Of a stretch of DNA of 64,000 nt, positions 60,209 to 64,000 are shown piece after piece. Every line of letters starts with the position of its first letter. Position 1 is the first letter of the stretch. Both the position numbers and the translations under genes were made by a program. Under the pieces are notes generated by a model. That model saw only the letters and a program-made list of their open reading frames with translations. It was not told the origin of the DNA and ran no database searches. The stretch lies in assembly GCA_002104945.1 (NCBI GenBank), contig MCFH01000059.1, forward strand, positions 186,001 to 250,000, in the 5' to 3' direction. Origin of the DNA: Piromyces finnis finn (taxonomy: Eukaryota; Fungi; Neocallimastigomycota).

Positions 60209-61873
60209 CTATTTCTCTATTCCTTTTTTTTTATTTTTATTATTCTTAATTTTATTATTCTTATTATTCTTATTCTTATTCTTATACTTATTCTTATTAT
60301 CATTATTATTATTATTATTATCATTATTATTATTATTATTATTATTATTATTATTATTATTATTATTATTATTATTATTATTATTATTATTATTATTATT
60401 GTTGTTGTTGTTGTTGTTGTTGTTGTTGTTGTTGTTGTTATCATTACTGCTATTATATATACCTGTAATTAATTTTGAAGATATAGAATTTAAACTATCT
60501 TCAGTATCATAAAAGACATCTTGGATAACATTATATGGGTCTTCAAAAGATAACTTTGACATGAATGAAAAATTGTCATTTTTCATTCCAAATCGTGACA
60601 TTGATAGAATTTTATTATCTTGGCACATAAAATTCGTTAATAATTCTATGTGTTGATTTTTGCACGATGAACCATTATTAACAATTTTTTGTAATTGCTT
60701 TAATATATTCTTTTTACGCGATTCAAAATCAACATCCATTAAATTGCCATAAACTATATAGCGAGAACGATCTTTATCAACATATTCGTTTTCAAAAAGA
60801 GGTCCCAAGTTTGTTCCAGTAACTTCGATAATAAATTCATCATTATAGTGTTTAGGTACAACTTTAATAACCCCTTTAGTTCCACTTAATACCACATTAT
60901 TTAATATTTTTTTAATGCCATTATTATTTAATTCTACAAAATCACTATTAAGTAAGTAGTATTTACCCTTATCTTCAAATTTTATTTTATTATTATTTAA
61001 ATAATTTATTATTAATTCGTTTTTAGCCGTATTTTGCAATTCATTAGAATTGCTATCATCGTCATTATCACTATAACTAATATCAGGTGAATTATCATTG
61101 GTTTCCCCAGTTTCATCTACCTTTATTTTGTTTTTATTTATATTTGGTTTAAAAATACATAATATTTCCATATCAACAATATATTCAACTTGATTTTCGT
61201 CTAACCAATCAAGTAATTTTGAAGCAGGCTGTGAAAATTCAATATATAGTTCAGTTAAATTTACAATTGAATCCCATTTACTAATGCTATTACCTGTCTT
61301 CTCTAAATATTCTTTTATACAATTAAAAATAATTTTTGGATGAATTTTATATTTAAATATGGCTTGTTTACATAAAAAAAAACGAAGACAAAAACCATCA
61401 TAAACAACATCTAAAACTACATCATTTAAAGCAATATATCGCATACTATTCAGTATTTTTTTCTTTAAGTTACTATCATAATCTTTAGATTTTAAATAAA
61501 ATTCTACCACGTCATAGTCTACTTTGTTTTTTGTTATATTATGTAATTCTTTTACTCCATCGATATTATCTTTATCACCATTTAATTTATGAAAATAACT
61601 TAACGCTAATTGTGTAACTGGCTCACCTATAGATTGAGCTGCCAATATGCCAACGTGTGTATTACTTTTAATTTTTTTGTCTTCAATCTTTTGAATTATA
61701 TAATTTACGAATTTATCAGGATTGAATTTTTCTGATTTTGGCTTTTTACTTAAAAAGGTTCGTACTTTATCATTAATTTCGCTAATGTAAGGTTGTAATT
61801 TTTCATCTTTTTCGAAATTTTTTGATATTTTATCACATATGCAATTAATTTCTATTTCTGATAGAGATTCCAT
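60209..61873 (-). CDS. RPB1-like: Stand-alone C-terminal half of a multisubunit RNA polymerase largest subunit (Rpb1 domain 5 / RpoA2-like), intronless, probably of large-DNA-virus origin
   Basis: Trigger loop VGILAAQSIGEPVTQLALSYFH at aa 74-95; GTKGVIKV; TGTNL; HIELLTNFM; SRFGM; LSFEDP..I. No NADFDGD half is present. ATG sits in an A-rich context only about 330 bp downstream of the Rpb2-like stop. Confidence 0.88.
   Translation of the reverse strand: MESLSEIEINCICDKISKNFEKDEKLQPYISEINDKVRTFLSKKPKSEKFNPDKFVNYIIQKIEDKKIKSNTHVGILAAQSIGEPVTQLALSYFHKLNGDKDNIDGVKELHNITKNKVDYDVVEFYLKSKDYDSNLKKKILNSMRYIALNDVVLDVVYDGFCLRFFLCKQAIFKYKIHPKIIFNCIKEYLEKTGNSISKWDSIVNLTELYIEFSQPASKLLDWLDENQVEYIVDMEILCIFKPNINKNKIKVDETGETNDNSPDISYSDNDDDSNSNELQNTAKNELIINYLNNNKIKFEDKGKYYLLNSDFVELNNNGIKKILNNVVLSGTKGVIKVVPKHYNDEFIIEVTGTNLGPLFENEYVDKDRSRYIVYGNLMDVDFESRKKNILKQLQKIVNNGSSCKNQHIELLTNFMCQDNKILSMSRFGMKNDNFSFMSKLSFEDPYNVIQDVFYDTEDSLNSISSKLITGIYNSSNDNNNNNNNNNNNNNNNNNNNNNNNNNNNNNNNNNNNNNNNDNNNNNNDNKNKYKNKNKNNKNNKIKNNKNKKKGIEK
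60290..60445. repeat. (AAT)n/(AAC)n trinucleotide expansion encoding poly-Asn in the Rpb1-like C-terminus
   Basis: Directly visible (TTA)n(TTG)n on the + strand; produces shadow ORF 60217..60444. Confidence 0.95.
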
Positions 61874-62204
61874 TTTTTTTTTTTTTTTTTTTTAAAAAAA
61901 AAAAAGTAAGAAATATGTATATATATTTATTTATTTATTTATTTCACTCTATTGAATTTAACTGTGATAAAAAAAATAAAGTTTATATTTTTAAAAATTT
62001 TTTAATTATTAAATAATAAATTTAGAATTCTTTTCTATTTCTTATTACCGATGGTTTAAATAAAATATAATTAGAAAAAAAAAAAAAAAAAAATACACAC
62101 ATAGATAGAAGTATAAAGATATAAAAATAATTAATTATAGATTATTAAATAATATTAATAATGCTATTTACTCATTTATTTATTTTTAATAAAATTAAAT
62201 AATT

Positions 62205-64000
62205 TTATTCATAAATAGCGGTATGTATTCCAATTGATTCTAAATATGAATTTAAAATATTAAAACTATTTGATATTGTTAACGAGGTTGTTGTAGAAGC
62301 ATCACAACACACATCTAATGTAGTAAGAGAATGGCAAATATTACAAAATCTAATATCCATACTATCCGTATTATTTTTAAACATATCTTGTATTATGTTT
62401 TCTACACCATGAGCTATTAACGCATCTTTTTCCATTTCTCCAATTCTTAACCCACCATTTTTTGATTTACCTTCAGTGGGTTGTTTACTAATAGCATTAA
62501 TATTACCATTAATACGATAAAACATTTTTTCTTCAACTTGATGTTGTAAAGCCGTATAATAACAAACTCCAACAAATGCTGTTCCTGTACTCATTCCAGT
62601 ACCAGGATCAATCATATTTTCTAAAACTGGAATATCACTTTCAAGATATTTTGTTTTGAAATTTTTTATATCGTTACTTTCAATGGAGGCATCAAAAAAG
62701 GTTCCAAATCCATCTGGATCCATAACCATACATTTACCAACATACATTTCAATTAAATGACCAATGGTCATTCTTGATGGAACAGCATGTGGATTAACAA
62801 TTATATCAGGTATTACACCATGTTCTGTTCGCGGCATTAATTCTTCAGGCAATATTGATCCAATTACACCTTTTTGTGCATAACGACTAGCAAATTTATC
62901 ACCTTGTTGTGGTTTATATAAATGACTAACTTCTACACAACAAAAGCATACATCATCTTTAATAAATGTAGTACATCGATCAACTCTCACTGGTTTTCTG
63001 AAAATATTTTCTATATCTGTAACCTTATTTTGAATAAAATTATATTTTCGAAATATGGGTTCATTACTAAATGATGAGTTTTGAGCTATAGGGGTATTAG
63101 GTTTAGGTAATCCATTTTCATAATTTGAATTGATGTTTAATAATACTTCTTGTTTAATATTATATGAAATATATTGATATCTACATTTCACATTACTAAA
63201 TAATCCATTTTGTATACTGTTCTCGTTAAAAATAACACTATCTTCTTGATTATTTCCCATTGCCATAATAGCAACTATAGCATTTTGTCCACCAAATCTA
63301 TGATATGTATTACCTGTTGTTATCAATTTATTTTCATCCTTTTCAATATTAATATTTGAAAGTATTCCAATACGTTTTCTGAATTCTTCATTATTTAATG
63401 AAATATTCTTTTCCAATTTATAATTATTTGATAAGTTTTTTAAATTAATATCATTAATTTCAGAATTATTTATTTCTTTTTTTTTCATATTGATTTTTAA
63501 ATCATCATTTTCATCGACTAAATTAAAAAATAATTCACTATTTAAATTACCATTAAAATTATTATTTAGTATATTTAGTGAATGATAATTACATAGTCTT
63601 CGTGATAAAATAGATTCCAACCTTGTCATACAGAAAGGACGTTGAGCATTAATTAATTTTCTTGAATTATCATTGTATCGGAATATTGTGCTATCATTAG
63701 TCATACATTGTTTAGTCATACCGGCTTGGAAGGTAAGTCTTGGTACATGACTATTCCCAGGAAATGGTGAAAGTGCACTAATTAAACCAAAAACAAAATT
63801 AGGATCTATTTCTTCATACTTGTATTCAACATTACATTTATACTCAGCAATATCAATAAATCTAATACCTATTTCAATATTATTTTTTATAACTTTAATT
63901 GGTCTTACAATTCTTCCTTCGTCTGTAAATATATAATATGCAACCTCGTCAAATAAACAACTGATAAATGGATATTTCAATTTTAATTCTTTATATGTAT
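62205..64000 (-). CDS. RPB2-like: RNA polymerase second-largest (Rpb2/beta-like) subunit, C-terminal part; intronless, divergent, virus-like; 5' end outside the window
   Basis: TDEGRIVRP; PFPGNSHVPRLTFQAGMTKQ; GQNAIVA..GNNQEDSVI; GDKFASRYAQKG; PDIIVNPHAVPSRMTIG; LQHQVEEK; QPTEGKSKNGGLRIGEMEKD. The frame stays open from the track's TTG start (63980) to base 64000 (TYKELKLKYPF...). Confidence 0.93.
   Translation of the reverse strand, partial: TYKELKLKYPFISCLFDEVAYYIFTDEGRIVRPIKVIKNNIEIGIRFIDIAEYKCNVEYKYEEIDPNFVFGLISALSPFPGNSHVPRLTFQAGMTKQCMTNDSTIFRYNDNSRKLINAQRPFCMTRLESILSRRLCNYHSLNILNNNFNGNLNSELFFNLVDENDDLKINMKKKEINNSEINDINLKNLSNNYKLEKNISLNNEEFRKRIGILSNINIEKDENKLITTGNTYHRFGGQNAIVAIMAMGNNQEDSVIFNENSIQNGLFSNVKCRYQYISYNIKQEVLLNINSNYENGLPKPNTPIAQNSSFSNEPIFRKYNFIQNKVTDIENIFRKPVRVDRCTTFIKDDVCFCCVEVSHLYKPQQGDKFASRYAQKGVIGSILPEELMPRTEHGVIPDIIVNPHAVPSRMTIGHLIEMYVGKCMVMDPDGFGTFFDASIESNDIKNFKTKYLESDIPVLENMIDPGTGMSTGTAFVGVCYYTALQHQVEEKMFYRINGNINAISKQPTEGKSKNGGLRIGEMEKDALIAHGVENIIQDMFKNNTDSMDIRFCNICHSLTTLDVCCDASTTTSLTISNSFNILNSYLESIGIHTAIYE

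Follow-up and report, generated by a model that had tools for sequence, protein, structure and literature searches.

A fundsalphavirus RPB2–RP1c gene pair in a contig of the gut fungus Piromyces finnis, probably a remnant without replication genes

Two RNA Polymerase Genes at the End of the Window

Two genes for RNA polymerase subunits lie on the minus strand in the final 3.8 kb of a 64,000 nt stretch of Piromyces finnis DNA (assembly GCA_002104945.1, contig MCFH01000059.1, positions 186,001 to 250,000), hereafter called the window. Both frames are open, and both genes belong to the fundsalphavirus lineage, small DNA elements of early-diverging fungi and mosses that are related to giant viruses. 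The first encodes an RPB2-like second-largest subunit, of which the C-terminal 597 codons are found in the window (62205..64000, minus strand), while the 5' part lies past the window end. Its frame (62205–63998) is without a stop codon, is still open at the window end, and specifies the C-terminal half of an RPB2-type subunit, with Pfam matches to RNA_pol_Rpb2_6 (E 5e-53) and Rpb2_7 (E 2e-15) and 64–78% identity to 12 full-length relatives of 1074–1177 aa; its tree placement (see later) agrees with this assignment. The motifs SHVPRLTFQ and SRYAQKG (the latter at 62868–62888), which an initial annotation of this DNA had pointed out, are both present, as are NQED, both lysines of GDKFASRYAQKG, PSRMT and the zinc-site cysteines. 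The catalytic roles of these last four features, and of the Q, L and H residues of the RP1c trigger loop described below, are presumed from those of Pol II. The protein ends at its own stop codon directly after domain 7, and is not fused to the N-terminal part of a beta' subunit.

Downstream is an AT-rich spacer of 331 bp and 10% GC (61874..62204), the position at which gut-fungal elements usually carry the genes for the D5 primase-helicase and PolB, according to accession spacing and to the gene maps in Fig. S2 of Gong, Zhang and Han (2020, Virus Evol 6:veaa008; PMC7017919). It is followed by RP1c (60452..61873, minus strand), a stand-alone C-terminal piece of the largest subunit that comprises the trigger loop, cleft, jaw and clamp-base end, and is split near the archaeal Rpo1C position. 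The frame runs from an ATG at 61873 to a stop at 60209 and encodes 554 aa, about 474 of which match the last third of RPB1, the remaining 80 forming a tail. It matches Pfam RNA_pol_Rpb1_5 (E 6e-21), is 51% identical to protein P0012 of Anaeromyces robustus, and carries the trigger-loop motif AAQSIGEPVTQLALSYFH at 61589–61642, with the Q, L and H residues present. Residues 30–104 align with residues 23–96 of archaeal Rpo1C, so that the starts agree within about 10 residues, and the protein begins near residue 1020–1040 of yeast RPB1. An in-frame stop is found just upstream of its own ATG, and the start position is common to the relatives, among which no search was made for longer, fused forms.

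The tail and stop codon (60209..60451, minus strand) are in frame with the rest of RP1c and consist of a poly-Asn/Lys microsatellite; the last 80 aa (60212–60451) are not present in most relatives. This largest-subunit piece has neither the single-chain architecture nor the heptad C-terminal domain of Pol II. The NCBI model of RP1c (P0003) places a 3' intron within 60004–60529 (minus strand), with a weak GTTATC donor at 60529, that would delete a conserved C-terminal motif along with the poly-Asn tail, and this is probably a prediction artefact.

The initial annotation had described two intronless genes in tandem on the same strand, for RPB2 and the C-terminal half of Rpb1, about 1 kb from a host VAP gene. 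The frames and strand are as given there and the distance from the RP1c stop to the VAP stop is 1,063 bp, but RP1c represents the last third of the subunit rather than half of it. The description as intronless holds for the open frames, and in the case of RPB2 it can be assessed only for the part inside the window.

Relatives in Gut Fungi and Metagenomes

One NCBI protein shares the first 448 residues of RP1c without a difference; it carries the name Piromyces finnis, and its contig is 323,665 bp long. Seventeen of the 29 matches to RP1c score 239–985 bits, and the next scores 88; five of the 17 are named (Piromyces, Anaeromyces and Neocallimastix) and 12 are unnamed metagenome proteins. For RPB2, 12 of the 120 listed matches score 825–1070 bits and the next 231. 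Named close relatives of both proteins come from Neocallimastigomycota only, the rest being unnamed metagenome proteins. P0012 is encoded on a contig of 119,790 bp, and P0351, a P. finnis paralogue that is 78% identical to RPB2 over the best segment, on one of 127,315 bp. These sizes equal those of MCFG01000208.1 (mapped with POL-RP1c) and MCFH01000089.1, respectively, in Fig. S2 of PMC7017919. Since the paralogue is 22% different, it is not a recent duplicate. Both genes are multi-copy in Neocallimastix, in clusters of 57 and 83 members (40 of each were read), as expected of an element and not of a housekeeping gene, and the accession numbers in that genus suggest that RPB2 and RP1c are separated by two or three genes.

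When 1.84 billion representative proteins were searched with a profile, there was a second tier of short RPB2 proteins, including examples from Sphagnum, Gaertneriomyces and Lobulomyces assemblies. A metagenome scan gave one locus of 3,857 bp carrying RPB2 only. Scans of IMG/VR with clade-specific patterns confirmed relatives in 0 of 53, 0 of 160 and 0 of 254 stretches, and broader patterns gave at least 80 loci each, at 25–41% identity.

The clusters of P0014 and P0039 contain many near-identical, mostly full-length copies of both genes from N. lanati and N. sp. 'constans', largely on contigs of 20–100 kb, and one contig of 308,190 bp has two RPB2 copies that are 16 accession numbers apart, which suggests recent amplification, tandem arrays or a high-copy form. 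One exact RPB2 sequence (P0036) occurs on 38 contigs and one exact RP1c sequence (P0007) on 47; for both the longest is 42,490 bp, possibly a whole element. The short RPB2 group (P0159–P0288) is broad and mostly unnamed, with many members of 810–1100 aa and a common N-terminal pattern, and in an 11-member subgroup around P0171, P0174 and P0191 several are only 810–930 aa. A second RPB2 subfamily (P0354, P0355, P0356 and P0357) is 43–45% identical to the window RPB2 and has its own long stem and short tips. Besides a metagenome cluster, it occurs in N. lanati (contig of 1,372,961 bp), N. californiae (281,820 bp) and A. robustus (110,959 bp), the N. californiae and A. robustus lengths not being among the scaffolds given in PMC7017919, and may be an older, vertically inherited copy. 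One member of the P0340 cluster of fungal-element RPB2 proteins, MBE6487074.1 from a 5-kb contig, is assigned in its database entry to a metagenome bin of Methanosphaera stadtmanae, likely a binning error.

Phylogenetic Placement and Motifs

Proteins shorter than 590 or longer than 1500 aa were dropped before tree building (251 kept); a chosen subset had 232 rows, and further trees had 67 and 35 rows. The trees contained no Pol I or Pol III rows, and for each of two unlabelled rows that were checked Pol II was the best match. The RPB2 proteins of gut fungi form a long-stemmed clade of two subfamilies, nested among the short RPB2 proteins, and the wider clade was supported by a Shimodaira–Hasegawa-like approximate likelihood ratio (SH-aLRT) of 99.4 in IQ-TREE (36 of 67 rows) and by 0.993 in FastTree (42 of 232 rows). 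A quick site-heterogeneous tree of 35 rows, made with posterior mean site frequencies (PMSF), grouped four gut-fungal with five short rows at 96, while eight Pol II rows formed their own clade, also at 96. On the same PMSF tree the approximately unbiased (AU) test rejected a grouping of the gut-fungal clade with Pol II (12 rows against 23; p 7.6e-5). None of 111 IMG/VR RPB2 sequences fell inside the clade. The Nucleocytoviricota-related origin proposed in the initial annotation is borne out by these values, and the protein does not nest within the Pol II clade.

A closer link to Pimascovirales had also been proposed. It agrees with the trees of PMC7017919, in which fundsalphaviruses are sister to Pithovirus and the family is placed with viruses when Pol I, II and III are included, but is weak in our own. 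There, grouping with loci L082 and L083, called iridovirus-like from their MSV199, NAD ligase, PolB and D5 neighbours, received an SH-aLRT of 90 in IQ-TREE versus 0.25 in FastTree, with no named pithovirus in the set. The AQKG variant on which the proposal had leaned is not diagnostic. Canonical HGQKG is found in 0 of 36 readable motifs inside the clade versus 124 of 165 outside, but xAQKG occurs in 28 of the 165 outside, among them P0046, which branches with microsporidian Pol II. Protein P0181, which begins like the moss RPB2 in the alignments of Maumus et al. (2014, Nat Commun 5:4268; PMC4083422), falls in the same clade as the window RPB2, and the trigger loop reads QLALSYFH in RP1c, QIALSSFH in moss RP1c (PMC4083422) and QMTLNTFH in cellular enzymes.

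Among solved structures, phmmer matched RPB2 best to yeast Pol II RPB2 (189.5 bits), followed by archaeal subunits (183.5), Pol III (162) and Pol I (144). Structure predictions were too poor to bear weight (predicted local distance difference test scores of 48 and 31). A fold search with the first of these, a low-confidence RP1c model, ranked a 423-aa ascovirus protein and pithovirus subunits of 690–940 aa highly; these weak leads hint that C-terminal largest-subunit pieces may exist in Pimascovirales too.

Gene Content around the Polymerase Genes

With 2,822 open reading frames from 159 loci as queries, no similarity to PolB, D5, a D6/D11 helicase, a cap methyltransferase or UDG was found in the window, and the same query set found only the two polymerase genes, GalE and WD40 genes; it included one PolB and one D5, both distant viral proteins, and a short decayed remnant could escape such queries. 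The usual gut-fungal order RPB2-D5-(DnaJ)-POL-RP1c is here collapsed to RPB2-RP1c. RP1n, which carries the catalytic NADFDGD motif, is not in the window, nor is a capsid gene. We class the locus as genes belonging to the lineage and not as a full element.

T occurs at 0.42–0.44 of four-fold sites in the polymerase genes versus 0.40–0.71 in host exons, ranges that overlap, and the CpG observed/expected ratio is 0.68 and 1.12 in the two genes versus 0.37–0.64 in a small sample of five host frames. Judged by these counts, codon use of the polymerase genes appears to lean away from that of neighbouring host exons.

Comparison with Published Elements

The Pithovirus-related 'fundsalphaviruses' of PMC7017919 were reported from 14 fungi in six phyla, including P. 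finnis, A. robustus and N. californiae among five gut fungi in all, with a gene set of PolB, D5, D6/D11 helicase, methyltransferase, RPB2, RPB5 and split RP1n/RP1c. The present pair resembles them in host species, in having RPB2 and a separate RP1c, in its apparent integration within a long fungal contig, and in its 51–78% identity to proteins on contigs that match published scaffolds in size. It differs in that RPB2 adjoins RP1c, D5 and POL usually lying between them in the gut-fungal maps, and in that both frames are open, whereas the published account stresses stops and frameshifts in the polymerase genes. Gene order in the maps of PMC7017919 also differs in Mortierella, Zancudomyces and moss, the last having RP1c, RPB2 and RP1n side by side, and several of the P. 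finnis copies have retrotransposons at the junction. The DNA-polymerase screen in that study gave P. finnis scaffolds of 857,073, 296,419, 246,453, 168,386 and 127,315 bp. The 323,665-bp contig of the RP1c-identical protein is not among these, so that, assuming the window is part of that contig, the locus was probably missed by a screen based on PolB.

The NCLDV-like (nucleocytoplasmic large DNA virus) regions of the moss Physcomitrella patens have a consensus of about 13 kb that lacks capsid, packaging ATPase and integrase genes, and their RP1 split was likened to the archaeal one (PMC4083422). All genes of these inserts have a ratio of nonsynonymous to synonymous substitution rates (dN/dS) below 1, though the inserts are silent. 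They share with the window the archaeal-like split position, the ALS trigger-loop variant and the adjoining RP1c and RPB2, and are unlike it in host kingdom, in belonging to a separate subclade of the RPB2 tree, and in carrying RPB5, TFIIS, FLAP and SSB, none of which is visible in the window.

Mirusviruses were considered and set aside, as no paper was found linking them to Neocallimastix, and egoviruses, met in a literature listing, were set aside as well. A yeast killer-plasmid polymerase was also rejected: the large RNA polymerase subunit of these plasmids is a beta-beta' fusion, and the architecture differs here, where RPB2 ends at its own stop codon. Pimascovirales (pithoviruses, iridoviruses, ascoviruses and marseilleviruses) have large genomes and virions, and we know of no capsid gene in the fundsalphavirus lineage. 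The likeness between the two lies in the published sister relationship to Pithovirus (PMC7017919). Cytoplasmic virus-like elements of yeasts and other fungi, the killer plasmids, are capsid-less and possess an RNA polymerase, helicase and capping enzyme of Nucleocytoviricota origin (PMC13348850), and as fungal DNA elements with their own transcription genes they can serve as a working analogy to the source element. They have a DNA polymerase of the adenovirus/polinton type (PMC13348850), unlike the NCLDV-type enzyme that accompanies D5 in this family. Mycodnaviridae (Myers et al. 2026; PMC13533422), also giant-virus DNA in zoosporic fungi, are related to Imitervirales and defined by capsid genes, unlike the window, in which there is none, and they were set aside: the main text of that paper, as far as it was available to us, has no mention of Neocallimastigomycota or RNA polymerase. 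No row in our trees was labelled as belonging to Mycodnaviridae. In our literature search, with subscription papers outside its reach, only PMC7017919 joined Neocallimastigomycota, pithovirus and endogenous.

Origin and State of the Gene Pair

We interpret the pair as the RPB2 and RP1c genes of a fundsalphavirus in a well-preserved chromosomal remnant, likely replication-less, left by a young capture that lost, or never had, its replication genes at this site (probability roughly 0.7). General knowledge of two-barrel polymerases underlies the assembly proposed here. In the source element RPB2, RP1n (with the catalytic aspartates) and RP1c (with the trigger loop) would assemble into a minimal multisubunit RNA polymerase, given the gene sets in PMC4083422 and PMC7017919. 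This enzyme would transcribe the element's own genes, aided by a cap methyltransferase and a D6/D11-type helicase. The probable site is the cytoplasm, as argued from the gene set in PMC4083422, and D5, PolB and UDG would copy the DNA. Element DNA would have entered the nuclear genome in an event separate from those that gave its other copies there, and a deletion or rearrangement would have removed D5 and PolB, so that the genes visible here would not suffice for the locus to copy itself. That both frames remain open is most likely explained by a capture that is young compared with the pace of decay. The initial annotation had envisaged a larger integrated viral element; a small element without a capsid is more likely than a large provirus with one.

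Several points weigh against the remnant interpretation. Neither frame is much decayed, and neither exceeds most of its relatives in departures from otherwise invariant columns, which in RPB2 number 9 of 278, against 2–15 in relatives (and 50 in one). The dN/dS ratio relative to metagenome locus L001 is 0.14 over 505 codons (dS about 1.1; the variable insert at residues ~135–225 was left out), a comparison that spans viral history and therefore cannot show selection after capture, which the selection may predate. Intact transcription genes alongside lost replication genes also fit domestication, and D5, PolB and RP1n may lie beyond base 64000. In RP1c, 10 of 116 invariant columns are altered (relatives 1–14); the counts for both proteins leave out four RPB2 rows from Neocallimastix that were near-identical and three RP1c rows that were partial.

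If the missing genes do lie further along, the pair could be the end of a complete, rearranged element that is still expressed or copied, for example via a cytoplasmic high-copy form. The open frames would suit such an element, as would the variable gene order in the family, with the three moss polymerase genes side by side (PMC7017919), and the recurrence of full-length relatives on many metagenome contigs of 10–50 kb, such as those of P0036 and P0007. We consider it unlikely, since the scaffold, absent from the five published for P. finnis, probably has no recognisable PolB, and since no relative was confirmed in IMG/VR by the clade-specific patterns. In a domestication scenario, selection would have maintained RPB2 and RP1c, which together with an RP1n encoded here or elsewhere in the genome would provide an extra host RNA polymerase. 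This could account for RNA polymerase genes retained intact without replication genes, for conserved catalytic motifs with little decay, for a setting amid ordinary host genes, where no retrotransposon was seen at the junction although several of the P. finnis copies in PMC7017919 have one, and for the presence of the second RPB2 subfamily (45% identical) on long contigs in three named genomes from two genera. Yet the nearest relatives in the tree are unnamed metagenome proteins rather than single orthologues of other named species, the codon use is unlike that of the host, departures in RP1c are at the upper end of the range, RP1n is missing from the window, and silent moss inserts likewise have a dN/dS below 1 as a rule (PMC4083422), all of which make domestication rather improbable. 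The same low probability applies to the broader proposal of a domesticated giant-virus polymerase in anaerobic gut fungi, a fungal counterpart of plant Pol IV/V, of which the second Neocallimastix/Anaeromyces RPB2 subfamily would be an older case.

An artefact, through contamination or through chimeric joining of element and fungal DNA, is very improbable. In its favour, the junction is AT-rich with long homopolymers, but runs from three other studies with the same organism label contain 0.60–0.69 of the sampled words of 58000–64000, of which the VAP gene makes up only about one fifth, GC content is continuous with the flanks, and the family occurs on long host scaffolds in several gut fungi, including those in PMC7017919. 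None of the runs listed was of RNA, a result to which we give no weight as regards expression. Fast-evolving duplicates of fungal Pol II (like plant Pol IV and V), or of Pol I or III, have the slimmest chance of all. Yeast Pol II RPB2 is indeed the best solved-structure match, but archaeal subunits score nearly the same and Pol III and Pol I lower; moreover, the AU test rejects a clade with Pol II, the family groups with viruses in published trees that include Pol I, II and III (PMC7017919), and the largest subunit is split and the subunit genes are linked.

The proposed viral origin is right but already published, since the same type of element was described in P. finnis in 2020 (PMC7017919) and in moss in 2014 (PMC4083422). 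New here is one more copy, of a kind that a DNA-polymerase-based screen would miss, on a scaffold apparently outside the published list, with D5 and PolB gone from between RPB2 and RP1c and both frames open. The lineage has been little studied, and its RPB2 clade is wide, extending to Sphagnum, Gaertneriomyces, Lobulomyces and many unnamed contigs. The source element could be a true virus or a capsid-less cytoplasmic replicon, a question made directly testable by cultured gut fungi with dozens of full-length copies. If the pair were maintained by the host, it would represent a virus-derived extra RNA polymerase in a fungus.

Flanking DNA and Other Genes of the Window

The polymerase genes are contiguous with host genes for VAP and katanin p80. 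The junction with host DNA (59146..60208) is 1,063 bp long with 13% GC, and has only simple repeats among the repeats listed; no terminal repeat or target duplication was recognised among these (20 of 47 direct families and 25 of 1021 inverted pairs), and no retrotransposon was seen. The VAP gene (57939..59145, plus strand) lies outside the element and is convergent with RP1c. It has GT-AG introns and a Motile_Sperm domain in an internal exon (E 8e-9). We considered whether the A-run ahead of RP1c might be a viral poly(A) leader but dropped the idea, as A-runs precede other starts in the window.

Other long intron-free frames are present in the window, so that the absence of introns alone is not diagnostic. 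One at 16771–18114 (plus strand) encodes a subtilase with a cysteine-rich C-terminus, and another at 20920–23655 (minus strand) a 904-aa protein with a weak W2 match. Between them, at 19022–19849 (minus strand), is an intron-free frame of 275 aa and 26% GC, with no Pfam or Atlas match, a cluster of Cys and His residues resembling C-x8-C-x10-C-x2-H, and codon use like that of the polymerase genes; it is possibly another foreign gene.

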